Of a stretch of 64,000 bases of DNA, positions 416-61,202 are shown one piece after another (position 1 is the stretch's first letter; every line of letters starts with the position of its first letter). Source of the stretch: Nanobdellota archaeon (GTDB lineage Archaea; Nanobdellota; Nanobdellia; Pacearchaeales; GW2011-AR1); NCBI GenBank assembly GCA_013329055.1, contig DUKY01000020.1, forward strand, positions 54,989-118,988, in the 5' to 3' direction. The notes under the pieces are model-generated. The model did not search any database and was not told the DNA's origin. It saw only the letters and a program-made list of their open reading frames with translations. Position numbers and translations under genes: made by a program.

Positions 416-675
416 AATTAAATTTTCTGGAACTTCAAAAGGCGATACTTTTGAAGTCTTTAACCCTCTCGAAGCATTGAAGGGTGATATCTTTTAAGTC
501 TAAAATTGTTTTTAAGATTTAACTATTCCCCTGAATTTTTTTACTTGAATTTTAATGCCCCACTCTCCCCAAATTATTATAAATAATAATTTGCCTTTTA
601 GTTGTTAAATCTTAATTATTAAAAACAATTTTTGAATTTTCTTGAAGTTTTAGAAAATTTGTAGAATTAATTATT
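383..675. repeat. composite intergenic hairpin-repeat block (gaacc/ggttc hairpin, two short hairpins, and a family-A element at 502-632)
   Basis: The arms aaaattgtttttaagatttaac (502-523) and gttaaatcttaattattaaaaacaatttt (604-632) are complementary. The inner hairpin is caaattattat-aaa-taataatttg. A 19-nt direct repeat agaaaatttgtagaattaa occurs at 403-421 and 652-670. The same modules recur at 4.6, 7.7-8.3, 12.2, 31.7-32.0 and 36.2-36.8 kb. Confidence 0.85.
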
Positions 676-4612: not shown

Positions 4613-4766
4613 AAAATGAACCCTTGGTTTCTTTTTGAAAAAGTGTTTTAAAGATTTTAACAAATCCCCTTTTTAATCTTGAATTTTTCCCACATCCCCC
4701 AAATTATTACTAAAGTAATAATTTGCCTTTAAGCAGTTAAAATCTTAATTATTAAAAACAATTTTT
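4613..4766. repeat. A-run/gaacc-ggttc hairpin/T-run followed by a family-A hairpin element
   Basis: The hairpin is aaaatgaacccttggtttcttttt. The arms are gaaaaagtgttttaaagattttaac and gttaaaatcttaattattaaaaacaattttt. The inner hairpin is caaattattac-taaa-gtaataatttg. Confidence 0.8.
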
Positions 4767-4859
4767 GAAACTTGAATGGTTAATCCTATTCCTATTATTA
4801 ATATGTAAAATTAATTTGTTATTTCTTTTATTCCTTTCTTTTAATCTAAATATAAAAAA

Positions 4860-4882: not shown

Positions 4883-5449
4883 ATGAAACATATGGTTCAA
4901 AATAAAAACATAGAATTTGAAATAGTATTAATGTTAATTAATCGGAAGTCTCATTTAAGAGAAATTGCAAGATTAATTAATGAACCTCATTCAACAGTTT
5001 TAAGAAAAATTAATCAACTTGTCAAAGATTCTATTCTTGATTATAAAACTGAAGGAAAAAATAAAAGCTTTTTTATTAAAAGAAATATTAAAGCTAGAAA
5101 TTATGTTCATCTCTCTGAAATCTATAAATTAAATAAGTTATTAGATAAGTCTCCTCAAATGTCAATCATCTTAGAGGATGTTAAGAATAATTTTTCTAAA
5201 GGAATGATAATTTTGTTTGGAAGTTATGCTAAAGGGAATGAAACAAAGAATAGCGATATTGATATTTACTTAGAGACCAATGATAATAAAATTAAAAATA
5301 AAATAAAGGAATTAAATTCAAAATTAAGTATTAAGATTGGGGAATTTGATTTGAATTCATTATTAATCAAAGAAATTATTAAAAATCATGTTATTATTAG
5401 AGGTGTAGAGGATTATTATGAAAAAAATAAAATTTTTGAAACATCTTAA
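4883..5449 (+). CDS. minimal nucleotidyltransferase (MNT-type antitoxin-like) with an N-terminal wHTH
   Basis: GSYAKGNETKNSDIDIYL matches the GS-x9-11-DxD pol-beta-type NTase motif. The N-terminus is wHTH-like (LREIARLINEPHSTVLRKINQLV). The gene overlaps the downstream HEPN gene by 32 nt. Confidence 0.75.
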   Translation: MKHMVQNKNIEFEIVLMLINRKSHLREIARLINEPHSTVLRKINQLVKDSILDYKTEGKNKSFFIKRNIKARNYVHLSEIYKLNKLLDKSPQMSIILEDVKNNFSKGMIILFGSYAKGNETKNSDIDIYLETNDNKIKNKIKELNSKLSIKIGEFDLNSLLIKEIIKNHVIIRGVEDYYEKNKIFETS

Positions 5450-5909
5450 CAAATCAGAAAAATTAAAGATTGTTGAGGTTTCTGAAAGTATGAAAGATTC
5501 TTATTTAGAAAAAGCAAAAAATTGTTTGAAAGCTTCAAAAATTCTTTTGAAAAATGAGCTTTATGAAAATTCTGTCTCCGAGAGTTATTATTGTATTTAT
5601 AATTCATTACTTGCTTTATTATTTAAAATTGGAATTAAATGTGAAAATCATTCTGCATCAATTATTATTTTTGAAAAATTATTTGCAGATAATGAATTGG
5701 TTAAAATCCTTTTATGGGCAAAAGAAGAAAGAATTGATAAACAATATTATGTTGAGACTCAACAGGTAATAAAAGTTACAAAAAAGTCATGTGAAGAGAT
5801 GATTGAAAAAGCAGAAGATATTTTATTAAAATTAAGAGTTATAATTGATGGATTAAATAATGAGAAAGTAAATCAGATCCGAAATTCTTTTGAGAAATTG
5901 TTAAATTAA
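5418..5909 (+). CDS. HEPN-domain protein (partner of the MNT)
   Basis: It is all-helical, with SESYYCIYNSLLALLFKIGIKCENH and EERIDKQYY, as in PF05168-type HEPN. It overlaps the MNT gene. I did not see a canonical Rx4-6H motif. Confidence 0.65.
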   Translation: MKKIKFLKHLNKSEKLKIVEVSESMKDSYLEKAKNCLKASKILLKNELYENSVSESYYCIYNSLLALLFKIGIKCENHSASIIIFEKLFADNELVKILLWAKEERIDKQYYVETQQVIKVTKKSCEEMIEKAEDILLKLRVIIDGLNNEKVNQIRNSFEKLLN

Positions 5910-7654: not shown

Positions 7655-8300
7655 TTTTAAAAAGTGTGTTAAAGATTTTAACTATTCCCCTGAATTTTTT
7701 TGTTGAAAAAGTGTGTCAAAGATTTTAACAAATCCCCTTTTTAATCTTGAATTTTTCCCACATTCTCATAACCTCGCACGAAACTTTGTGGATTATTGTT
7801 TCTACCACGAAGTTATTCGCCCCAAAATCATTATTAATGATTTGCCTTTAAGCTATAGAGAATTATAAAATAATTCTCTAAAAAGTAAACTAAACCAACG
7901 TTAATTCAATTAGTTTACTTTGTTAAAATCTTATTATTAAACACACTTTTTTATTTTTTTACTTGAATTTAATGCCCCCCTTCTTCTCGTAACCTCGCAC
8001 GAAACTTTGTGGATGAAAAAAGCATACAAAGATTTTAACAAATCCCCTTTTTAATCTTGAATTTTTCCCACATCCCCCAAATCATTATTAAAATAATGAT
8101 TTGCCTTTAAGCAGTTAAAATCTTATTGTTGGTATGCTTTTTTTATTGTTTCTACCACGAAGTTATTCGCCCCCATTATTCCTAAAGTAATAATTTACCT
8201 TTAAGTTATATTAAAATCTTATTATTAAACACACTTTTTTATTTCTTTACTTGAATTTAATGCCTCCCCTTCTCGTAACCTCGCACGAAACTTTATTGAT
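7655..8300. repeat. about 650 bp block of nested family-A hairpin elements (at least three elements, one inside another)
   Basis: The outer arms are aaaaagtgtgtt... (7659) and ...aaacacactttttt (8240). An inner element has arms at 7706-7729 and 7921-7952. A third element (8015-8143) interrupts the module that is intact at 7781-7822. Confidence 0.85.
8015..8143. mobile_element. MITE-like hairpin element inserted into the loop of another repeat module
   Basis: The intact sequence is aaactttgtggat|tattgtttctaccacgaagttattcgcccc at 7781-7824. The same flanks occur at 8002-8014 and 8144-8170, separated by a ~129-bp element with complementary ends gaaaaaagcatac...gtatgctttttt. Confidence 0.7.
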
Positions 8301-8364
8301 ATAAAAGTATTTGAAAAATCTCAATTATTAATTACTCTTTTATTATAATTAATCTTATAAATAA

Positions 8365-12130: not shown

Positions 12131-12363
12131 GGTTCTGTCCAGAATTAAGTTTTTTTGATTTTAGGATTCCCCCTTCAATGAAAGACCCCTCGGTTCTCTT
12201 AGAAAATTGTTTTTAAGATTTAACTATTCCCCTGAATTTTTTTGTTTGAATCTTTATCCCCACATCCCCCTCATTATTGCAAAGCAATAATTCGCCTTTA
12301 AGTTGTTAAATCTTAATTGTTAAAAACAATTTTTTAATTTCCTCAAAGTTTGGAAGGGGTATC
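12131..12363. repeat. composite repeat insertion (left half of family B plus a family-A element at 12201-12335) flanked by an 11-bp direct repeat
   Basis: ttctaagaatt occurs at 12120-12130 and 12364-12374. The B-type left arm is ggttctgtccagaattaagtttttttgattttag. The A-type arms are agaaaattgtttttaagatttaac and gttaaatcttaattgttaaaaacaatttttt. Confidence 0.75.
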
Positions 12364-12372
12364 TTCTAAGAA

Positions 12373-14571
12373 TTAATTCTTTTTATCTAAAACATATAAA
12401 CAAATTTCTCTTGCATCTTCTTTCCGATAATTAAATTTTTTTTGCAGATTTTCAAGTAAAAATCCGACATCCCTTTTAATTTTATCATCGTATTTTTCAA
12501 AACTTTTTTGACCATATTCTTTTAATGCATTTCTAAAATTTTCATTTTTTAAATACGGGAGTAATGCACTTTTTTTTAAATTTTCTGAATAAATTGCAAA
12601 TAAATCTCTATATTGGTCTGTTTCTGTTATCTTTTTTTCTTCTACTAACATTTCCTGCGGTAATGTTTGTGTTGCAAAATCTTTATGCATTTGAATCCTA
12701 AATTTTTTGTATCCTAATTCTTTTAACTCTGGTTTTTCCGGTAAAAACATTCCTCCCGCATCAGCAATTACTCTTTCAATGCCCTGGAAAAATGGTTCAC
12801 CAATTACAATTTCATCCCCTGTATAAATACATTTAATTGTTTGTTCTTTTGGTGAATAATTTATTGCAAATAAATAATTTTGAATTGTTTTACTTATTTC
12901 TTCATCATTATATCGATATAAACATTCTTGAACTTCTTCCAGAACTTTATAATCATAACTTTTTTTAACTGCTGTTAAAACTTCTGCAGATATATCTGCT
13001 TTCTCTTCGATTTCTGTATAACTTGGTTTCATTATCCCTTCAAAAAATTCCTGAACCATCTCCATTGTGAAACATTTTCTATCTTTTGATTGGTAAGTTG
13101 ACATAAAATTTCTTAATTCTTTAATTGATGTTCTTCCGGAAAGACCATCAAAACCTTCTGATTCTGATTCTCCTAATACTTTTTCTTTTACTTCTCTTGT
13201 AAAATTATTTTTATCTTCTTTACTTAGCCAATCCGGAATTTTTCCCCCATAAATTTCCATCTTTAATAACAGCATATCTTTATCTGTATAATTCGCATAT
13301 CTTTCCGGACTGTTTATCCATTTTTTTAAGGGTTCAGATTTAATATTTAACCTCGATGAAACAACAATCTTTGCAAAATTTTCTAATACCCCTGGTAAAA
13401 ATTGCTGTTCAATTTGTTCTCCAAATTCACTCTTATAAATTTGAATTTCTGTTTGAGGCACTAATACATATGGAATTTTTCTAACGACAATTCTGTCTCT
13501 GAACGCTTTATCTTTTTCAAATGCATCTTTATCTTCCGGATTTGTTAATCCGATAAATAGAGAAGAAATTTTTTCTTCTAATTCTTCAGCTCGTTCGACA
13601 GAGTCGCTGACAACACTATGAAGACCTAATAATCTTTTTTGATTTTCTCCTTTAATGTCCATTAAAGCATAAATCCCGTTATTTGTTCTTGCTAATTGAG
13701 GGTATTTATATAGCACTGCATCACTGCTTCCAAAAATTTTATTTAATTGTTCCTGTAAATATTTATCCAATTCTATTTGATTTTTTATCGGGTCTTTTGG
13801 GTTCCATACGCTTATTCCCTGCCCTTTTCGTCGATCAAATTTAAATCTTTTTGCCCGAATCATATTTAAAATTTTTTCCGGTTCTAAATCTTTTTGTGTA
13901 AGCTGAGAATAAACTGATGTGCAAATTGTGCAAGGATCTTTTTCAAATATCCATCTATATTCTTTATCTTCGAATAATTGTTTTTTGAATTTTTCATCAT
14001 GGATTAATTCTTCTAAAAGTTGTTTTCTGTGTTTTTTTTGTATTTGGATTATTGGATGATCATGATGCGGGCATGGAATATTTAGTTCTGTTTGATTTTT
14101 TTCTTTTGAATTTAATTCGTGAAGATTTAATCTCCATAATGTTTCATATGTAATTCCTTCTTCTGTTAAAGCATATTCTTCAAATTTTGTAATAAAATTT
14201 GTTAAAAATGTACTTTTACCGCTCCCTTTTGGTCCTTCAAAAAGATAAATTGAATTACTTGTCGAGTTATCTTTTAGCCCTTCTATTAATTTAATGAACT
14301 TTTTTGAAAAAAATTTATCTGCAAAAAAAGGTCTTTGAGTATTTTTTTCAAGTAAATTTGAAAGGTCATATGCTGTGCTTTTAGGTTCTCCGGGATATTC
14401 TTCAATTCCTTCAGGGATAAAATAATAAACCATATCTCTGGTTAATTGAAATATATTTCTTAAAAATTTTTTTGGTTCTTTTTCAGTTTTTTGCAAAAAT
14501 TCATCTAATGAAATTGAATGTTCTACTGTTTCATTTCTTAAATTTGCAATTAGATTTTGTTTACTTTTCAT
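12373..14571 (-). CDS. PrkA-like AAA+ protein (second, divergent PrkA paralogue)
   Basis: The Walker A motif is FEGPKGSGKSTF. It is a large helical protein whose start overlaps the stop of spoVR by 4 nt. Confidence 0.65.
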   Translation of the reverse strand: MKSKQNLIANLRNETVEHSISLDEFLQKTEKEPKKFLRNIFQLTRDMVYYFIPEGIEEYPGEPKSTAYDLSNLLEKNTQRPFFADKFFSKKFIKLIEGLKDNSTSNSIYLFEGPKGSGKSTFLTNFITKFEEYALTEEGITYETLWRLNLHELNSKEKNQTELNIPCPHHDHPIIQIQKKHRKQLLEELIHDEKFKKQLFEDKEYRWIFEKDPCTICTSVYSQLTQKDLEPEKILNMIRAKRFKFDRRKGQGISVWNPKDPIKNQIELDKYLQEQLNKIFGSSDAVLYKYPQLARTNNGIYALMDIKGENQKRLLGLHSVVSDSVERAEELEEKISSLFIGLTNPEDKDAFEKDKAFRDRIVVRKIPYVLVPQTEIQIYKSEFGEQIEQQFLPGVLENFAKIVVSSRLNIKSEPLKKWINSPERYANYTDKDMLLLKMEIYGGKIPDWLSKEDKNNFTREVKEKVLGESESEGFDGLSGRTSIKELRNFMSTYQSKDRKCFTMEMVQEFFEGIMKPSYTEIEEKADISAEVLTAVKKSYDYKVLEEVQECLYRYNDEEISKTIQNYLFAINYSPKEQTIKCIYTGDEIVIGEPFFQGIERVIADAGGMFLPEKPELKELGYKKFRIQMHKDFATQTLPQEMLVEEKKITETDQYRDLFAIYSENLKKSALLPYLKNENFRNALKEYGQKSFEKYDDKIKRDVGFLLENLQKKFNYRKEDAREICLYVLDKKN

Positions 14572-22372: not shown

Positions 22373-22506
22373 GGCTCTTTTCGGAATTAAGTTTTTTTGA
22401 TTTTAGGATTCCCACTTCTAGTTCAAGCTAAAGCTTGAAGACCCGCCCTTAATGAATACCTGAATTGCCAATATGTTAGCTAAAATCAAAAACTCTAAAC
22501 AGAGCC
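22373..22506. repeat. family-B MITE-like element
   Basis: The arms are ggctcttttcggaattaagtttttttgattttag and ctaaaatcaaaaactctaaacagagcc. The central palindrome is ttcaagct-aa-agcttgaa. The element ends 3 nt from the stop codon at 22510. Confidence 0.8.
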
Positions 22507-31685: not shown

Positions 31686-32050
31686 GAAATTGTTTTTAAG
31701 ATTTAACTAAAAAGAACCCTCTGGTTCTTTTTGAATCTCCTCAAAATATTGAAAGGTGGCATCTCTTTGAGCCTTTGTGGATGCCACGTGGAAATCCCTG
31801 AATTTCTTTGTTTGAATCTTAATGCCCCACATTCTCGTAACCTCGCACGAAACTTTGTGGGTTATCGTTTCTACCACGAAGTTACTCGCCCCAAAATTAT
31901 TAAAATAATAATTTGCCTTTAGGTCGTTAAAATCTTATTGTTGGTATGCTTTTTTTTATAGTTTCTATTATGAATTTAATTGCCTTTTGTACAATTATTA
32001 AAGTATAATTTGTATTAAGCAATTAAAATCTATTGTTAGTATGCTTTTTT
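31686..32050. repeat. composite family-A repeat block with an inserted hairpin module and two tandem right arms
   Basis: The left arm is gaaattgtttttaagatttaac. The inserted modules are aaaaagaaccctctggttcttttt and gtggcatc...gatgccac. An intact cgcacgaaactttgtgg...ccacgaagtt module is present, and two ...attgttggtatgctttttt arms follow. Confidence 0.8.
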
Positions 32051-36186: not shown

Positions 36187-36212
36187 ATTTTCTATTGAAT
36201 TTGAATTTTCAT

Positions 36213-36768
36213 AAAGAATACAAGATTTTAACAAATCCCCTTTTTTCTTTGTTTGAATTTTATTCCCCACATTCTCATAACCTCGCACGAAACTTTGTGT
36301 AGGTAAAAAAGCGTATGAAAATTTGATTTTTGAGATTCCCACTTCAAGTTCAAGCTAAAGCTTGAAGACCCGCCCTTAAAAATATTTGAATTTCCAATAA
36401 GCTAATCAAAAATTAAATTTTTATTATTAAACACACTTTTTTATTTCTTTGCTTGAATTTTAATCTCCCACATTCCCCAAATTATTACAAAAGTAATAAT
36501 TTGCCTTTAAGCTATAGAAAAAATAATATTTTTTCTAAAAAGTAAACTAAACCAACGTTAATTCAATTAGTTTACTTCGTTAAAATCTTATTGTTGGTAT
36601 GCTTTTTTTATTATTTGCGAAGTTACTCTACTCCTTGTGAAAACTTGCTTTAAATCAAGAAAAAATTTTGATTTATTGGCAATTTTCAAAGTTACTCGCC
36701 CCTTTATTGCTTTGCAATATCTCACCTTTAAGTTTCATTAAAATCTTATTGTTGGTATGCTTTTTTTA
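36213..36768. repeat. about 550 bp mosaic of family-A modules with a nested family-B copy (36321-36414)
   Basis: It contains ...cgcacgaaactttgtg interrupted by other modules, and the B core cccacttcaagttcaagctaaagcttgaagacccgccc. The two-hairpin module tagagaa.../agtaaacta...tagtttact matches 7855-7921. Two ...attgttggtatgcttttttt arms are present. Confidence 0.8.
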
Positions 36769-36826
36769 CTTTTAAGAAGTTTGGGAATTGAATAAAAAAA
36801 TTTTAATGGGTCATTTTTATCAAAAG

Positions 36827-45683: not shown

Positions 45684-46028
45684 ATGGTTATATGTAGATT
45701 GACAAAAGTTTTATTGGAAAATGGAAGACCAATGGATAAAGATTTTTCTGAAATTTTTGAAGTTAGTGACGAAGGTAAATTTTCAGGAAAAATTTTTAAG
45801 TATCAACCTTTTTGCAAAGGTGAAATTAGGGGAAAATTTGATTTAACTAAAGGAATTTTGTCTTTGAATTATCTTTTTAATGGTACAAGCATTGGACAAA
45901 TTTATAGCTTAGAGCGACAATTTTGTTTACCTTGTAATCGTGAGACTATTTTTGGTCATTATTTTGATAAAAAGAGAGAAGTTTTATTCCAAATTGAAGA
46001 TTGTGATAAATGTGACAAGTGTGATTAA
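45684..46028 (+). CDS. hypothetical protein, Cys-rich C-terminus
   Basis: The motifs are DEGKFSGKI and CDKCDKCD. A TATA-like aatatttaaata is centred about 27 nt upstream. Confidence 0.45.
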   Translation: MVICRLTKVLLENGRPMDKDFSEIFEVSDEGKFSGKIFKYQPFCKGEIRGKFDLTKGILSLNYLFNGTSIGQIYSLERQFCLPCNRETIFGHYFDKKREVLFQIEDCDKCDKCD

Positions 46029-46046
46029 GTATTAAAAATTCTATTT

Positions 46047-46322
46047 ACTTGATTTCTAAAAACTCTACTCGTTTCCAGAGCAGTTTATTAATCTTTTACA
46101 TTACTTCTGTTCTAAAAACTCTACTTGTTCCAGAGCAGTTTATGAATTTATTAATTTTTTATATTACTCCTGCTCTAAAAACTCTACTCGTTTTCAGAAC
46201 AGTTTTATTTTATTTTTTAATTTTTTAATTTTTTAAATTACTCCTGCTCTAAAAACTCTACTCGTTTCCAGAGCAGTTTATGAATTTATTAATTTTTTAA
46301 ATTACTCCTGCTCTAAAAACTC
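46047..46322. repeat. tandem array (4 full and 1 partial units of about 55-75 bp), each unit carrying the hairpin ctgctct-N19-agagcag
   Basis: The unit tactcctgctctaaaaactctactcgtttccagagcagttta is repeated. The linkers are short, AT-rich and partly identical to one another. The last partial unit merges with the 3' end of the Dph2 fragment. Confidence 0.85.
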
Positions 46323-46609
46323 GGCATCATCTCTGAATGTCCAAATTGAATTGTTAAATCAATTTGTTTTTGAATTTTTCCTGGTAAAATTGGTGTGTCG
46401 CAAGCTCCAAAACAGCTTTCAATCCAAATTAAAAATTCCGCATCTGTTTTTTCTTCTAAATAGTCAACTATTGCTGTTGCATATTGTTTTAGTCCATCCG
46501 GAAATTGGAGCAAAATTAATTTTGCATTTGATTTTTTTATTTGTTCAATTATTTTGTTTAATTCTAAGTCATATTGTTTTTCTATATCTGATATTGTATA
46601 TTTTTGCAT
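46313..46609 (-). pseudogene. dph2: Dph2 (diphthamide synthesis radical-SAM enzyme), N-terminal ~98 aa only; truncated or split
   Basis: AKLILLQFPDGLKQYATAIVDYLEE...CFGACD...IQFGHSEM matches the first third of archaeal Dph2 (about 340 aa). The ORF stops right after the GHS motif, at the tandem repeat. Confidence 0.65.
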
Positions 46610-46821: not shown

Positions 46822-46868
46822 TAAAAGATTAGGTGAGATGATAAGTTTTCAATTTAAAATTAGAATCT

Positions 46869-47387
46869 TTAACCCTTACTTTTTCTGTTTGGTTTGTTTA
46901 TCTCGAACCATTTGCTGATTTCTTGAATTATTTCTGATGTTATTCTTGGGTCTTGAAGTTCGTAAAATTCTTGAGGAGTTATTATTTTATAATATCCTTT
47001 TCCATATGTATTAACTTCTTTAAGATTGCCATATTGAAATTTTTCCCTTGTTGTAATACAAGTGTCTTCTCTACATCTTCCCCAATTATTATTATTTTCT
47101 GTTGGAAAATTGTCTAGTTGCCATTTCCAATTTCCACATTCATAAATTTGCATTAATGTGTCATAACTTTCCTGAGTTGGAGTATTAATTGCTGTTTTTT
47201 CTAATTCTTTTAAAATTAAAATTGGTCTGCCATTTTCGTTTCTTTCTAAAAGAGGTTTTATTTGGTTTGAACCCATATATTGATTTAGGTCTCCAAATAA
47301 ATTCATTCTTTGAATTTTTGTTTCTTCTAATTTTTTCATCATCTTTTCATGTGGAAGAATTATCATTGATTTGTTGAGGGTTATCAT
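46869..47387 (-). CDS. MITLNKSM-family orphan protein, paralogue 1 of 6
   Basis: 172 aa. It shares the N-terminus MITLNKSMIILPHEKMMKKLEE, the core YDTLMQIYECGNWKW, and the C-terminus ITPQEFYELQDPRITSEIIQEISKWFEINKPNRKSKG. Confidence 0.7.
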   Translation of the reverse strand: MITLNKSMIILPHEKMMKKLEETKIQRMNLFGDLNQYMGSNQIKPLLERNENGRPILILKELEKTAINTPTQESYDTLMQIYECGNWKWQLDNFPTENNNNWGRCREDTCITTREKFQYGNLKEVNTYGKGYYKIITPQEFYELQDPRITSEIIQEISKWFEINKPNRKSKG

Positions 47388-47388
47388 T

Positions 47389-47901
47389 TTATCCTTTACT
47401 TTTTCTGTTTGGTTTGTTTATCTCGAACCATTTGCTGATTTCTTGAATTATTTCTGATGTTATTCTTGGGTCTTGAAGTTCATAAAACTCTTGAGGAGTT
47501 ATTATTTTATAATTTCCGTATTCGTTAACTTCTTTAAGATCTCCATATTGAAATTTATTATATGCTTGAACACAAGTTATTTTTCCATAGCATTCCCAAG
47601 CATTAAATTCTGTTGGTAAAATTATGTCTTCAACCCATTTTCTATCACCACATTCGTAAATTTGCATTAATGTGTCATAATTTTCTTGAGTGGGAGTATG
47701 AATTACTGTCCTTTCTAATTCTTTTAATTCTAAAATTGGTCTTCCATTTTCATCTTTTGTAAGATTAGAATTTGTTGAGTCAGATCCCATATATTGATTA
47801 AGGTTTCCAAATAAATTAATTCTTTTAATTCTTGTATCTTCTAATTTTTTCATCATCTTTTCATGTGGAAGAATTATCATTGATTTGTTTAATGTTATCA
47901 T
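47389..47901 (-). CDS. MITLNKSM-family orphan protein, paralogue 2 of 6
   Basis: 170 aa. Its stop lies 1 nt before the start of paralogue 1. An ~85-nt stretch at the 3' end is identical to paralogue 1. Confidence 0.7.
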   Translation of the reverse strand: MITLNKSMIILPHEKMMKKLEDTRIKRINLFGNLNQYMGSDSTNSNLTKDENGRPILELKELERTVIHTPTQENYDTLMQIYECGDRKWVEDIILPTEFNAWECYGKITCVQAYNKFQYGDLKEVNEYGNYKIITPQEFYELQDPRITSEIIQEISKWFEINKPNRKSKG

Positions 47902-48021
47902 TTTAATTTTATCTTTAATCTGAAGTTTATAAACTTTTGTTTTAGATGTAACTATCTAGTGGTAAACTATTTTATTCTAGAATTATTTTTATCTTTGGAT
48001 TATTAAATAAGAAATTTAGAA

Positions 48022-49685: not shown

Positions 49686-49818
49686 GGCTCTGTCCAGAAT
49701 TAAGTTTTTTTGATTTTAGAATTCCCACTTCTAGTTCAAGCTAAAGCTTGAAGACCCGCCCTTAATGAATATCTGAATTGCCAAAAGTTAGCTAAAATCA
49801 AAAACTTTGGACAGAGCC
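49686..49818. repeat. family-B MITE-like element overlapping the 3' end of the glycosyltransferase gene
   Basis: The arms are ggctctgtccagaattaagtttttttgattttag and ctaaaatcaaaaactttggacagagcc. The core is cccacttctagttcaagctaaagcttgaagacccgccc. Confidence 0.85.
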
Positions 49819-51991: not shown

Positions 51992-52503
51992 TATTTAATT
52001 CCTTTGCTTCTTCTATCTGGTTTATTTGTTTCAAACCATTTATTTATTTCTTCTATCGTCATATCTCTTATTTGCGGGTCTTGAATATCATAAAATTCTT
52101 GGGGCGTTCTGATCAAAGATTTTTCTACAAATCTTTGTATTTCCCCATATCTAAATCCTTCAAATGCACCAATACATGTATTTTCTTTATATGTTGTCCA
52201 AGCATTATATCTTGTGGGAATATCTCCATCCTGCCATTCCCAATTACCACATTCGTAAATTTGCATTAAGATATCATATTCATATTGTGTGAAAACATTA
52301 ATATATGTATCTTGTAATGATTTTAAATTTAAAATTGGCCTTCCCTCTTCATCTCTTCTTAAATCTGACTTTTTTAAAGATTTTTTTCCCATGAATCCAT
52401 CCATTTCTCTAAGCTTAAATGGTCCATTTTTCTTTCTTTCTTCTGCTTTCTTAATAATTTCATCATGCGGTAGAATTATCATTGATTTGTTTAATGTTAT
52501 CAT
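51988..52503 (-). CDS. MITLNKSM-family orphan protein, paralogue 3 of 6 (most divergent N-terminal half)
   Basis: 171 aa with MITLNKSMIILPHDE..., YDILMQIYECGNWEW and INKWFETNKPDRRSKG. Its 3' end overlaps the convergent esterase gene by 4 nt. Confidence 0.65.
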   Translation of the reverse strand: MITLNKSMIILPHDEIIKKAEERKKNGPFKLREMDGFMGKKSLKKSDLRRDEEGRPILNLKSLQDTYINVFTQYEYDILMQIYECGNWEWQDGDIPTRYNAWTTYKENTCIGAFEGFRYGEIQRFVEKSLIRTPQEFYDIQDPQIRDMTIEEINKWFETNKPDRRSKGIKY

Positions 52504-52513
52504 TTTTTATTAA

Positions 52514-52990
52514 TTAGAAATCGAATTTAAACCATTGATTTATTTCTTCTATCATTGAATTTGTAACACCTTCAATATCATAAAACTCTTTTGATTGTAT
52601 TATTTTGTAATTTATACTTTCATAAAATTCTATACTTGAAAATCCTACTTTGCCCTGTACACTTATGCATGTTTTTTTTCCATACATCTCCCAAAAGCTA
52701 CGTGTTGTTGGTTTATTTTCACTTTCCCATTTCCAATCTGCACATTCACAAACTCTCATTAAATCCCAATATTCTTTTTTGCTTATTGTTTGCACTACTG
52801 TTTTATCTAAAGGGGTTAAATATAAACTTGGTCTTCCATTTTTATCTCTCTTAAAATTAGCATTTATATTTGATCCCATATATTTATTAAGGTCTTTACA
52901 TAAAAGCATTCTTTGAACTCTTGTTTGTTCTAATTTTTTTATCATTTCTTCATGAGGGATAATTATCATTGATTTGTTTAATGTTATCAT
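52514..52990 (-). CDS. MITLNKSM-family orphan protein, paralogue 4 of 6 (lacks the basic C-terminal tail)
   Basis: 158 aa with MITLNKSMIIIPHEE..., YWDLMRVCECADWKW and EEINQWFKFDF. Confidence 0.65.
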   Translation of the reverse strand: MITLNKSMIIIPHEEMIKKLEQTRVQRMLLCKDLNKYMGSNINANFKRDKNGRPSLYLTPLDKTVVQTISKKEYWDLMRVCECADWKWESENKPTTRSFWEMYGKKTCISVQGKVGFSSIEFYESINYKIIQSKEFYDIEGVTNSMIEEINQWFKFDF

Positions 52991-52991
52991 T

Positions 52992-53495
52992 TTATCCTTT
53001 GCTTTTTCTGTTTGGTTTATTTATTTCAAATAATTGATTTATCTCTTTAATCATTTTTTGCGTTATTTCTGGTTTTTGAAATTCGCAAAATTCTTGCAAA
53101 GTTAATATCTTCCAATTCTTTTGAATATAAAATTCTTTGTTTCCACATCTAAATCCGTTTTTTATTGGTATGCATGTTTTTTGTTTATAACCTTTCCAAA
53201 AATTATGTTCTGTTGGGTTATTATCTGGCCATTCCCATTTTCCAATTTCATAGATTTGCATTAATGTGTCATAATTTTCCTGAGTTGGAATATGGACTGC
53301 TGTATTTTCTAATTCTGTTAAAATTAAAGTTGGTCTTCCATATTCTCCTTTTGCAAGATTAGAATTTGTTGAATTATATCCCATATATTGATTCAGGTTT
53401 TTGAATAAATGCATTCTTTGTATTCTTGTTTCTTCTAATTTTTTTATCATTTCTTCTTGTGGAAGAATTGTCATTGATTTGTTTAATGTGATCAT
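52992..53495 (-). CDS. MITLNKSM-family orphan protein, paralogue 5 of 6
   Basis: 167 aa. Here the core Cys is replaced (QIYEIGKWEW). The C-terminus is EINKPNRKSKG. Confidence 0.65.
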   Translation of the reverse strand: MITLNKSMTILPQEEMIKKLEETRIQRMHLFKNLNQYMGYNSTNSNLAKGEYGRPTLILTELENTAVHIPTQENYDTLMQIYEIGKWEWPDNNPTEHNFWKGYKQKTCIPIKNGFRCGNKEFYIQKNWKILTLQEFCEFQKPEITQKMIKEINQLFEINKPNRKSKG

Positions 53496-53496
53496 T

Positions 53497-54009
53497 TTAT
53501 CCTTTGCTTTCTCTATTTGGTTTGTTTATCTCGAACCATTCATTTATCTCTTGGATGATTTCTTGTGTTATTTCTGGTTCTTGAAGTTCGTAAAATTCTT
53601 TAGGGGTTATTATTTTCAAATTAAAATTTTGTGCATGTTTAAATGCAAAACTATATATAAAATTTTTTTTTGCGGTTATATTCATGTTGTTTTCTTGATT
53701 GTTTTTCCAAGCATTAAATTCTGTAGGTAATTTTTCAGAATACCATTTCCAGCTTCCACATTCATAAAGTTGCATTAGTGTGTCATAAATTTTTTGATTT
53801 TGTATTTGTATGACCATTCCATCTAATTGTTTTAAATCTAAAATTGGTTTTCCATTTTCATTTCTTTTTAAATTATAATTTATTTGATTGGTTCCAATAT
53901 ATTGGTTAAGGTCTTTACATAGAAGCATTCTTTGTATTCTTGTTTGTTTTAATTTTTCTATCATTTCATCATGCGGTAGAATTATCATTGATTTGTTTAA
54001 TGTTATCAT
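53497..54009 (-). CDS. MITLNKSM-family orphan protein, paralogue 6 of 6
   Basis: 170 aa with YDTLMQLYECGSWKW and EWFEINKPNRESKG. Its stop lies 1 nt before the start of paralogue 5. Confidence 0.65.
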   Translation of the reverse strand: MITLNKSMIILPHDEMIEKLKQTRIQRMLLCKDLNQYIGTNQINYNLKRNENGKPILDLKQLDGMVIQIQNQKIYDTLMQLYECGSWKWYSEKLPTEFNAWKNNQENNMNITAKKNFIYSFAFKHAQNFNLKIITPKEFYELQEPEITQEIIQEINEWFEINKPNRESKG

Positions 54010-54124
54010 TGGTATTATTTTTAGATTTAAAATTTATAAACTTTTGGTTCAATGTTACTATTTAGTGACAAATGATAATTCTTAAAATAGTTTAAAAAAT
54101 ATTTTTATATTTGAAGAATTACTT

Positions 54125-54871
54125 TTAGCGTAAATAAAATCTGGAATCTAATATTTCCTGTAAAGAATATTTTCTTGTATTTAATGTGCTATCTCTTGTT
54201 GGTAATATTCCCATAAGACGACTACCTCCATCATCAAGATCGTCTGCTCCGTTGACATATGATTCATTGCCGAGTCTTCCAAGATACCATGCTCTTATTT
54301 CCGGAGTTTTTCCTTTGCAAGAACCGAGAATAATGCTCATTGGTGTTTCATGACCGTATTTTTTTTCACTTTCATCGTAAATAAAATCTGTATAATCATT
54401 GAGCAGGGCTTGATCTCTTGCTAAAATTCTCCAAAGAGGGTCACTTTTAACATCTTCTTTTGATTTAAAATCTATTGTTCTTTCAAGTTTGTGATTTTTA
54501 AATTCAATAACATTTGATTGTTTTTTTAATTGTTCATAAATTGCAAATGCTTCATCTTTATTTTCACTTAATAATAATGCACCATTGTATAATTTTTTAG
54601 TATCTTGGGAGATTTTTATTAACATTTCTGAATCTAAATCAATTAAGATATTTTGTGTTTCCGGATGATAGATAACTGCATCGCAGGTGTCATAGTTACT
54701 TAGCCAAGCATTTTTTATAGCTTCCGGACCATTTTTATAGTTGAGTCTGATTTGCATGAATTGTGAAATATTTCCCGGGATTCTTCCTTCTGCTCTTAGC
54801 TTAGGCATTGTTTTTATGTATTTGCCTGAAAATTCTTTATATGTTTCTGGTGTTTCATTAAGTTTTGCCAT
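54125..54871 (-). CDS. hypothetical protein heading the second paralogue array
   Basis: 248-aa ORF with no motif recognised. It lies 115 nt upstream of paralogue 6 on the same strand. Confidence 0.55.
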   Translation of the reverse strand: MAKLNETPETYKEFSGKYIKTMPKLRAEGRIPGNISQFMQIRLNYKNGPEAIKNAWLSNYDTCDAVIYHPETQNILIDLDSEMLIKISQDTKKLYNGALLLSENKDEAFAIYEQLKKQSNVIEFKNHKLERTIDFKSKEDVKSDPLWRILARDQALLNDYTDFIYDESEKKYGHETPMSIILGSCKGKTPEIRAWYLGRLGNESYVNGADDLDDGGSRLMGILPTRDSTLNTRKYSLQEILDSRFYLR

Positions 54872-57722: not shown

Positions 57723-57824
57723 GGCTTTGTCCTGAATTAAGTTTTTTTGATTGTTAGGATCCCCACCCTTAATTAATACTTGAATTGCCAAAAGTTAGCT
57801 AAAATCAAAAACTTTGGACAAAGT
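57723..57824. repeat. family-B MITE-like element, short form lacking the central palindrome
   Basis: The arms are ggctttgtcctgaattaagtttttttgattgttag and ctaaaatcaaaaactttggacaaag. Confidence 0.75.
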
Positions 57825-60935: not shown

Positions 60936-61202
60936 ATGTGCCTTTACAATGGATGTTCCGCTTTGAGTTATATTACCCCGATTTACCTCAATTTCCAATT
61001 ACTTATGTTCATAAAATATTCAGAACAAAAAGAAATTTGGCATGAAACTTACAGATTCCGTGTGCTTGTTGAAGGAATATTTTCTGCACTTAAGAGAAAG
61101 CATCTAAACTATTTACGTTCCAAAAAAGAGATTGCTCTTCATGTTGAGCTTTTGCTAAAGGTACTGGTATACAATTTGACAATAATTGGGAAGTATTCCT
61201 AA
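60936..61202 (+). pseudogene. C-terminal remnant of an IS4/IS5-type DDE transposase
   Basis: YRFRVLVEGIFSALKRKHLNYLRSKKEIALHVELLLKVLVYNL matches the Y-x2-R-x3-E-x6-K region of IS4/IS5 transposases. No intact N-terminal part is present. Confidence 0.55.

Follow-up and report, generated by a model that had tools for sequence, protein, structure and literature searches.

A small protein-less mobile DNA element of a DPANN archaeon in which base pairing is kept while sequence changes

The stretch of DNA analysed here (the window, 64,000 nucleotides) is C18:54989-118988, part of a 1.19-Mb assembly of 26 contigs with 28 % G+C and a completeness of 85 %. The host is a DPANN archaeon (Nanoarchaeia), and the window encodes a threonyl-tRNA synthetase with the archaea-specific editing domain. 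Between its genes lie copies of a repeat that we call family A, a small mobile DNA element that encodes no protein. BLAST and motif scans located about 28 loci bearing its core in the genome, several of them clusters and six of them in the window. All 28 are intergenic and confined to contigs C18, C19, C21, C13 and C14, where the copies stand singly among housekeeping genes in spacers that are divergent (11), tandem (12) or convergent (5). A role as terminator, one of the options raised in an initial annotation of the window, is rejected on this distribution across every kind of intergenic context, as is a role as promoter. Within the 64-kb window, Rfam gave no match at its gathering threshold and a tRNA scan gave no match at the repeats. 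The central observation is that pairing in family A is kept while its sequence changes, which supports the view that it acts as a folded nucleic acid.

The fold of family A can be described as an outer helix (an A-run, a variable word of 6-8 nt and then a T-run) and an inner helix with the strands AAGATTT(T)AAC and GTTAAA(A)TCTT, joined via a fixed one-sided bulge of 6-7 nt. Read along the written strand, the 5' end consists of G and the A-run, the variable word and AAGATTT(T)AAC, 3' of which lie conserved C-rich loop motifs (TATTCCCCTGAA or AAATCCCC, CTTGAATTTT, CCCACATCCCC), a small hairpin of variable sequence, GCCTTTAAG and GTTAAA(A)TCTT. The right side continues with an unpaired 6-7-nt spacer, AATTRTT, and ends in the complement of the variable word and a T-run. 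The loop enclosed by the inner helix, with its C-rich motifs and small hairpin, measures about 70-250 nt; the arms are 80-250 nt apart and the inverted termini are 24-30 nt long. Optional modules occupy fixed points of the loop, namely a hairpin aactttgtgg...ccacgaagtt and two further hairpins 5' of the right core. Short copies form one long interrupted hairpin, with z of -3.3 to -5.4 against their own shuffles (+ strand).

To place the arms in register, each left arm was aligned with its own right arm in reverse complement; simple MAFFT alignment of entire copies, which misregisters the arms because of a paired T/A indel in the core, was left out of the arm counts. Across 34 left/right pairs the left arm is nearly identical to the reverse complement of the right, with 21-25 of about 24 positions in Watson-Crick pairs, the constant bulge aside. 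For the outer and inner helices together, an alignment of 32 copies (21 distinct, chimeras included) whose registers were chosen with pairing in mind has 95.2 % pairing cells, compared with 88.4 +/- 0.8 in shuffles that, here and below, ignore relatedness. Both sides change in 7 of the 20 pairs, double-changed cells number 33 rather than 12.1 +/- 2.5, and the covariation score is 0.220 versus 0.094, neither value being reached in 500 shuffles. When the partner columns are slid by 1-3 positions, pairing falls to 26-51 %. The inner helix covaries through a paired T/A insertion, which accounts for part of its signal, through a change from G:C to A:T (with G.T intermediates in two copies) and through a change from C:G to T:A.

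The small inner hairpin obeys the same rule. It occurs with at least nine different stems, mostly perfect, in which transversions are compensated as well as transitions; with the conserved 3' flank as anchor, 17 distinct stems show both-sided change in 5 of 10 pairs, and 21 double-changed cells stand against 6.0 +/- 1.9 (0 of 500 shuffles). A third alignment, fitted to a covariance model and containing 44 copies from three populations and seven other genera, gave 94.6 % pairing cells versus 80.3 +/- 0.8 in shuffles, with both-sided change in 16 of 20 pairs versus 9.9 +/- 1.2 (0 of 500). Base pairing itself is therefore constrained, because variable positions change on both arms together, where a protein-binding repeat would be fixed or independently variable. 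Thus the proposal of the initial annotation that selection acts on structure rather than on sequence is supported by an excess of double-changed cells over shuffled and slid controls in three helices, and pairing kept under sequence change supports its suggestion of a folded nucleic acid. The optional aactttgtgg/ccacgaagtt stem shows no double-sided change and carries uncompensated variants. Its T-G pair, which had been described as a G-U wobble only in a plus-strand transcript, is indeed present but is no evidence of strand, since G.T and A.C intermediates both occur; as the two are about equally frequent, a choice of strand from wobble pairs was rejected altogether.

A BLAST search of 39 other species from the same taxonomic family and order gave no matches. 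A covariance model built from the inner helix and the small hairpin, a check proposed in the initial annotation, recovered distant copies that BLAST had missed, and their folds are paired. Divergent copies are present in 7 of 299 other genomes of the taxonomic family, so counted by genus family A occurs in 8 of 191, its own included. These relatives keep the unpaired motifs CCCC, TTGAATTTT, CCCACAYTCCCC and CGCCTTTAAG, while all of their helices change in a paired way. The inner helix reads GGGTTTTCAC/GTGAAAACCC, AGGTTTTTAC/GTAAAAACCT or GGATTTTAAC/GTTAAAATCC, and the outer arms, complementary yet different, read GAGTGTGTCTAATAAAT/ATTTATTAACACACTC, GGAGCGTGT/ACACGCTC, GCGTGTCT/AGACACGC and TATGCAA/TTGCATA. 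In the same relatives, the sequence that is a right-side spacer in this genome pairs with a partner on the left side, where the bulge is also found. Genus-level divergence has thus left the fold in place, and the patchy distribution of family A is that of a mobile element. The conservation of unpaired motifs and bulge fits a single-stranded substrate that is read by a protein via its loops.

Within this genome the arms come in more versions than the three flavours first described. Fully matched words, at least seven with their partners, are TTGTTT, TTATTT, ATGTGT, GTGTGT, GCGTAT, GCATAC and TTTGT, and single-arm or wobble intermediates are GCGTGT, GTGTAT, GCATAT, GCTTAT and GTATAC. These form a one-step series, GTGTGT - GCGTGT - GCGTAT - GCATAT - GCATAC, and GTATAC, such that flavour 2 leads to flavour 3 through successive single transitions, each with its counterpart on the opposite arm wherever the partner is known. 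Many different combinations of arm word, core type (3 or 4 T), loop type and hairpin type occur. Descent of the flavours from three unrelated parent elements with no conserved interior, a possibility that the initial annotation had named, is rejected, the interiors being shared and reassorted and the one-step intermediates present. Arms mismatch in 5 of about 34 copies; C19:24779 and C19:35496, for instance, combine a left arm of flavour 3 with a right arm of flavour 2. Such copies do not make up a separate class but are mostly deletions between repeated hairpin modules of nested clusters. In one orthologous copy (L069 versus C21) the entire interior, hairpin included, has been swapped while arms and cores are the same, and conversion between copies therefore also moves hairpin versions. 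The arms were also considered as pre-existing target hairpins that host an inserted core. This was rejected, since no empty arm-word hairpin was found in the genome or at related loci; core-less arm words in the genome are scattered chance matches, and the one exception, the copy C21:6865, has unrelated yet partly complementary flanks and occurs in three populations.

The mobility of family A can be seen in nesting and in comparison with relatives. Flavour-3 copies lie repeatedly inside the loop of another copy's optional hairpin, flavour-2 copies inside the T-rich part of another copy's loop, and flavour-1 copies directly 3' of the T-run of a GC hairpin that belongs to a second repeat family, itself also found inside a family-A copy. 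Two related populations with genes 94-96 % identical were compared, drawing on genome and metagenome collections. The JGI metagenome contigs Ga0208953, Ga0209000 and Ga0208957 match this genome at 100 % identity. The whole repeat block of about 290 nt that holds the 502-632 copy is missing in a population about 96 % identical (L085), and the 4637 copy, together with a flanking small hairpin, is missing at the orthologous site of a sister genome (L055). The site of the 7659 cluster is occupied in the sister genome by a single copy with the arm word GCGTAT and an A:T core pair, and in a sister population (L083) the 12201 slot, between the GC hairpin and CTCCTCRAAG, is filled by an unrelated module of about 60 nt. 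One population carries a 575-nt composite made up of other repeats and a flavour-1 copy into which a flavour-3 copy is nested; the corresponding site of this genome is empty and clean, no more than 3 bp being duplicated. Copies at unlinked sites reach 97.7 % identity (12201..12335 and C19:79400), and three rearrangement breakpoints fall exactly 3' of the bulge or spacer. No consistent target duplication surrounds 32 copies of this lineage, and long target duplications were not seen for family A in this lineage. The left flanks are T-rich, with no common motif and no conserved 4-5-nt target. Of the roles first offered for the element, that of a transposition intermediate fits best with the nesting, the presence and absence between sister populations and the co-orientation of copies.

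That co-orientation is strict. Core-bearing loci are on the + strand in C18, C19 and C21 and on the - strand in C13 and C14 (28/28), and loci with several pattern matches are all co-oriented. Flanking genes occur in every orientation and therefore do not explain it. Third-codon-position skew, taken as the mean over both gene strands, is strong only in these five contigs, and its sign matches the orientation of the element. Its GC component is +0.27, +0.33 and +0.31 in C18, C19 and C21 versus -0.26 and -0.19 in C13 and C14, and its AT component -0.21, -0.22 and -0.28 versus +0.26 and +0.25; among the remaining contigs of 19 kb or more, absolute AT skew does not exceed 0.112. The usual convention places an excess of G over C and of T over A on the leading strand, from which we infer that the element's written strand serves as the lagging-strand template. 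The restriction of strong skew to the five family-A contigs may stem from two replicons or two regimes of replication, or from a bin in which two genomes are mixed.

The copies in the window are collected in Table 1 with the neighbouring repeats. All the arm sequences and coordinates quoted in the initial annotation were found, off by at most 1-2 nt; all of these arms flank the (A)AGATTT(T)AAC ... GTTAAA(A)TCTT core, and the four inner hairpins and the mixed-arm copy at 31.7-32.05 kb that it listed are present.

Table 1. Family-A copies and other repeats and genes of the window (positions in the window)
Feature	Position	Strand	Score	Details
Flavour-1 arms	502-513 / 621-632 and 12203-12214 / 12322-12333	+		aaaattgttttt / aaaaacaatttt
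Flavour-2 arms	7706-7717 / 7939-7952 and 7659-7670 / 8227-8240	+		aaaaagtgtgt(c/t) / aaacacactttttt
Flavour-3 arms	8016-8027 / 8132-8143	+		aaaaaagcatac / gtatgctttttt
Short copy	502..632	+	127.7 bits	word TTGTTT (flavour 1); inner hairpin AAATTATTA/TAATAATTT
Short copy with unlike arms	4637..4768	+		left GTGTTT, right AAACAA; one G/T mismatch
Nucleotidyltransferase-HEPN (MNT-HEPN) gene pair	4883-5909			adjoins the 4637..4768 copy
Nested cluster, outer flavour-2 copy	7659..8240	+
Long flavour-2 copy	7706-7952	+		in loop of the outer 7659-8240 copy
Flavour-3 copy	8015-8143	+		in loop of the outer copy's aactttgtgg/ccacgaagtt hairpin
Partial unit	8241-8306	+		directly after the 7659..8240 cluster
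Short flavour-1 copy	12201..12335	+	131.9 bits	inner hairpin ATTATTGC/GCAATAAT
Composite	31686..32050	+		flavour-1 left arm and core at 31686-31707
Composite, interruption	31708-31797			another repeat family
Composite, right arm ending the remainder of the long copy	~31937-31956			flavour-3 right arm
Composite, right arm of second partial unit	~32030-32050			also flavour-3 right arm
Decayed nested cluster	36210..36770	+		degenerate left arm and core at 36213-36232
Cluster, GCGTAT-arm copy	36306-36442			interior swapped for another repeat family
Cluster, long copy	36443-36609			two extra hairpins; ends in flavour-3 right arm
Cluster, further partial unit	to ~36767			flavour-3 right arm
Second repeat family	385-500, 633-672, 12176-12200 with 12336-12375, 31708-31797			GC hairpin (GAACCnnnnGGTTC) and T-run, then GAATYTCCTCAAA...TTGAAAGGKGKYATC
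Third repeat family	12131-12176, 22373-22471, 36321-36398, 49686-49784, 57723-57768			GGYTCTKTCCRGAATTAAGTTTTTTTGATTTTAGRATTCCCACTTCTAGTTCAAGCTAAAGCTTGAAGACCCGCCC...
Tandem array	46020-46343			five 56-74-nt units, a CTGCTCT...AGAGCAG hairpin in each
Two tandem paralogue arrays	46868-47933 and 51996-54136			~170 aa, eight copies, 60-96 % DNA identity

The slot after the T-run of the second repeat family holds family A here and the unrelated module in L083. A 19-nt direct repeat, AGAAAATTTGTAGAATTAA, at 403-421 and 650-668 brackets the whole block containing the 502-632 copy; a composite insertion may have left it as a long target duplication, or it may belong to a larger unit. The third repeat family has a copy that occupies the interior of the family-A copy at 36.3 kb. 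One optional module, CTCGTAACCTCGCACGAAACTTTGTGG...TTTCTACCACGAAGTTACTCG (7757-7830), is also free-standing in both orientations on many contigs (C7, C11, C15, C17, C23, C26), contigs without family A, and its stem shows no double-sided changes. In the sister genome the MNT-HEPN pair is replaced (L055 1931-2562) by a retropepsin-like aspartyl protease and a DUF5678 protein on the other strand, and at the 7.7-8.3 kb site an extra PrkA-C-like gene abuts the right core of its copy. The sister contig L011 (3810-3951) joins C19:10906 and C19:35481, which are 25 kb apart here, through a family-A copy; the junction may mark either a true deletion, through recombination of direct copies, or a chimera that arose at the repeat during assembly. 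A metagenome extension of the C19 end (L078 6747-9266) contains a tandem array of at least eight units, 83-100 % identical, that repeat about every 294 bp. The tandem array at 46 kb is not CRISPR-like, because the entire unit repeats.

We favour the reading that family A is a non-autonomous, REPIN/IS200-like element that moves as a hairpin-folded single DNA strand at the replication fork, because it would unite the fold, the parallel with REPINs, the mobility, the lack of regular duplication and the one-way orientation; we hold it to be about evenly poised between right and wrong. In such a scheme an enzyme acting in trans would recognise the fold, its substrate, in single-stranded DNA, and the + strand (G>C, T>A) would be the lagging-strand template, exposed at replication. 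At the fork the element would be excised and inserted in hairpin form, as IS200/IS605 elements and REPINs are. Only copies whose arms still pair would be copied again, and the arms would in this way stay complementary. A bolder form of the idea, possible but on balance doubtful, is that DPANN archaea have an undescribed system of fork-coupled single-strand transposition, whose enzyme would read the three-helix hairpin via its C-rich loops and bulge and be indifferent to helix sequence. Such an enzyme would not be a recognisable Y1, TnpB or DDE protein, or would come from the host or another replicon, and the same logic may lie behind many other one-way nested hairpin repeats between the genes of these small genomes.

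Candidates for the mover of family A were sought in this and in related genomes. A search of this genome with PF01797 gave no matches, an absence left unproven at 85 % completeness. Y1_Tnp is found in 94 of 300 genomes of the taxonomic family, among them 5 of the 7 other element-bearing genomes versus 89 of 292 others (one-sided Fisher p = 0.034). A Y1 (HUH) transposase absent from the incomplete assembly is the first candidate mover, and no more than a candidate. The only match to a tyrosine recombinase in the genome is a single fragment on another contig, and no gene is enclosed by a left/right pair of family-A arms.

Several points weigh against fork-coupled single-strand movement. No Y1_Tnp, TnpB zinc-ribbon, rve or DDE_3 domain was found in this genome (again, an 85 %-complete assembly), and the one transposase trace recovered, in the window at 60936-61202 (+), is the C-terminal remnant of an IS4/IS5-type DDE transposase (DDE_Tnp_1, PF01609, a sub-threshold match of 21.6 bits), without family-A-like ends. 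The association with Y1 is weak, p rising to 0.066 once this genome is counted, and in related genomes no family-A motif adjoins a tnpA gene. Of 10 distant copies, 3 lie between direct repeats of 7-10 bp, which would fit a staggered-cut mechanism. The ends of IS200/IS605 elements are two independent subterminal hairpins with guide tetranucleotides, whereas the ends of family A pair together. Finally, the assignment to the lagging-strand template depends on the skew convention, the direction of replication itself being read from skew.

Care must also be taken to weigh other explanations of the same fold. It may operate at the level of RNA, with the copies being dispersed small structured RNAs or cis-acting RNA modules (for example, C-rich loops with G-rich sites as pairing partners, or a signal for processing or termination) and their spread through the genome being secondary. 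Covarying helices and conserved unpaired motifs across genera are the classic signature of a functional RNA, the core and small hairpin have G.T intermediates on the + strand, and the T-runs at either end would halt archaeal RNA polymerase. Highly expressed genes, too, are known to be co-oriented with replication. However, the family is missing in 292 of 299 related genomes, which excludes a housekeeping RNA, and its copies nest, decay and vary between sister populations, at positions that are not fixed relative to genes. A.C intermediates, which would be wobbles on the - strand only, are about as frequent as G.T, Rfam has no match in the window, and the 28/28 strand bias exceeds that of the surrounding protein genes; we therefore consider an RNA-level role unlikely. 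Less likely again is an ordinary miniature inverted-repeat transposable element (MITE) moved as double-stranded DNA by a DDE transposase, with the arms as terminal inverted repeats that bind the same protein. Termini of 24-30 nt are long enough to suggest it, as do the direct repeats beside three distant copies and the IS5-like remnant in the window. Yet the variable positions change jointly on both arms, in at least seven ways within one genome, and the internal small hairpin does likewise, although it is no terminus. The lack of a consistent target duplication in this lineage, with a clean empty site of at most 3 bp, also speaks against a DDE element; a strict one-way orientation would be unexpected for duplex cut-and-paste, and no transposase gene with family-A ends was found.

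Complementarity could also arise free of selection, by quasi-palindrome correction (template switching, or arm-to-arm conversion in a hairpin or cruciform) with versions spread by gene conversion. Stems that are mostly perfect, with transversions compensated like transitions, are what correction would leave, and the reassortment of modules among copies and the swapped interior of the L069/C21 copy point to conversion. As a full account it is, in our estimation, a slender prospect, slightly more so than the DDE element: the one-sided bulge, which arm-on-arm copying would erase, is constant across flavours and genera along with the unpaired motifs, single-step mismatch and wobble intermediates exist, and the arms are 80-250 nt apart. 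Correction needs a folded single strand too, and so modifies rather than replaces the single-strand reading; together with conversion between copies, it may help to keep stems perfect. More remote than any of these is a structure-specific recombination site that exchanges gene cassettes, whether like integron attC or another hairpin site of a tyrosine recombinase. Here the inner helix fits RYYYAAC ... GTTRRRY (ATTTAAC / GTTAAAT), the bulge is one-sided and the orientation uniform, three breakpoints fall exactly after the bulge, and sister populations differ in a two-gene cassette beside a copy (MNT-HEPN versus retropepsin-like protease and DUF5678). Integrons do exist in Nanoarchaeota (PMC9668308), a report used as a lead only. 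But the additional pairing of family A lies outside the R-like boxes, whereas attC has its L boxes inside them; cassette arrays are absent, the copies being single between housekeeping genes; the sole tyrosine-recombinase match is the fragment already mentioned; and a 6-nt core match is weak evidence at 28 % G+C. A classical DDE MITE and an attC-like site are accordingly both less likely than an element that moves as a single-stranded hairpin.

These repeats matter beyond one locus. Family A offers unusually clean evidence of a fold as the inherited unit, in three helices and across one genome, its sister populations and other genera, and shows that a small DPANN genome gives intergenic space to layered hairpin repeats. 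Its strict orientation to strand skew points to replication-coupled single-strand mobility in Archaea, where this is hardly studied, and it supplies a defined, testable substrate for an enzyme search, with conserved loops and helices of any paired sequence. As hot spots, the repeats also mark places at which populations differ in neighbouring toxin-antitoxin-like cassettes and in contig joins, which is important for the evolution and for the assembly of such genomes.

Among known systems, integron attC sites resemble family A in recognition by fold and not by sequence, in RYYYAAC/GTTRRRY-like boxes, in the choice of strand by unpaired bases and in orientation to replication. In family A, however, the boxes have the opposite geometry, arrays and an integrase are lacking, and copies insert into each other. 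DDE MITEs share with it terminal inverted repeats, but neither a target duplication of fixed length nor a coding partner with the same ends was found for family A. The bacterial palindromic repeats Correia/NEMIS, ERIC, RUP and BOX and the Rickettsia palindromic elements are similar in size, inverted ends, modular build, lineage-specific expansion and intergenic position. Those MITE-like repeats whose mechanics are known differ in having short target duplications and both orientations, and we know of no bacterial palindromic MITE-like repeat with hypervariable yet paired arm words.

IS200/IS605 elements and their miniature derivatives, such as the PATEs of Haloquadratum, resemble family A in several ways. 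They are recognised through hairpin structure in one strand, as proposed for family A. They make no target duplication, a trait on which family A gives a mixed picture, with none consistent in 32 copies of this lineage but direct repeats of 7-10 bp beside 3 of 10 distant copies. IS200/IS605 elements are reported to have their active strand on the lagging-strand template (PMC5027513), to which skew would also assign family A, and Y1 transposases are common in the host's taxonomic family. Family A differs in having no conserved 4-5-nt target at its left flank and no sequence link to the tnpA-bearing elements of related genomes. Family A also resembles the REPIN/RAYT system, REP doublets mobilised by RAYT (TnpA-REP) Y1 transposases, the hairpins of which show compensatory changes (PMC3116915). 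Family A is similarly short, protein-less and intergenic; its two inverted arms form one long single-strand hairpin with compensatory stem changes; its mosaic and nested clusters, without consistent target duplication in this lineage, recall BIME mosaics; and for both the proposed mechanism involves a single-stranded hairpin, handled at the replication fork. Unlike bacterial REPINs, family A is archaeal, and its assembly has no RAYT/Y1 gene, whereas REPINs have a cognate RAYT gene that the repeats usually flank. REPIN arms are conserved 16-mers around a variable spacer, while family A conserves its unpaired loop motifs and bulge and varies most in its arm words; it also has a large loop (about 70-250 nt) with optional hairpin modules, and its orientation is strictly one-way. 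Family A is thus an archaeal element of the REPIN/MITE kind, apparently an undescribed variant of it.

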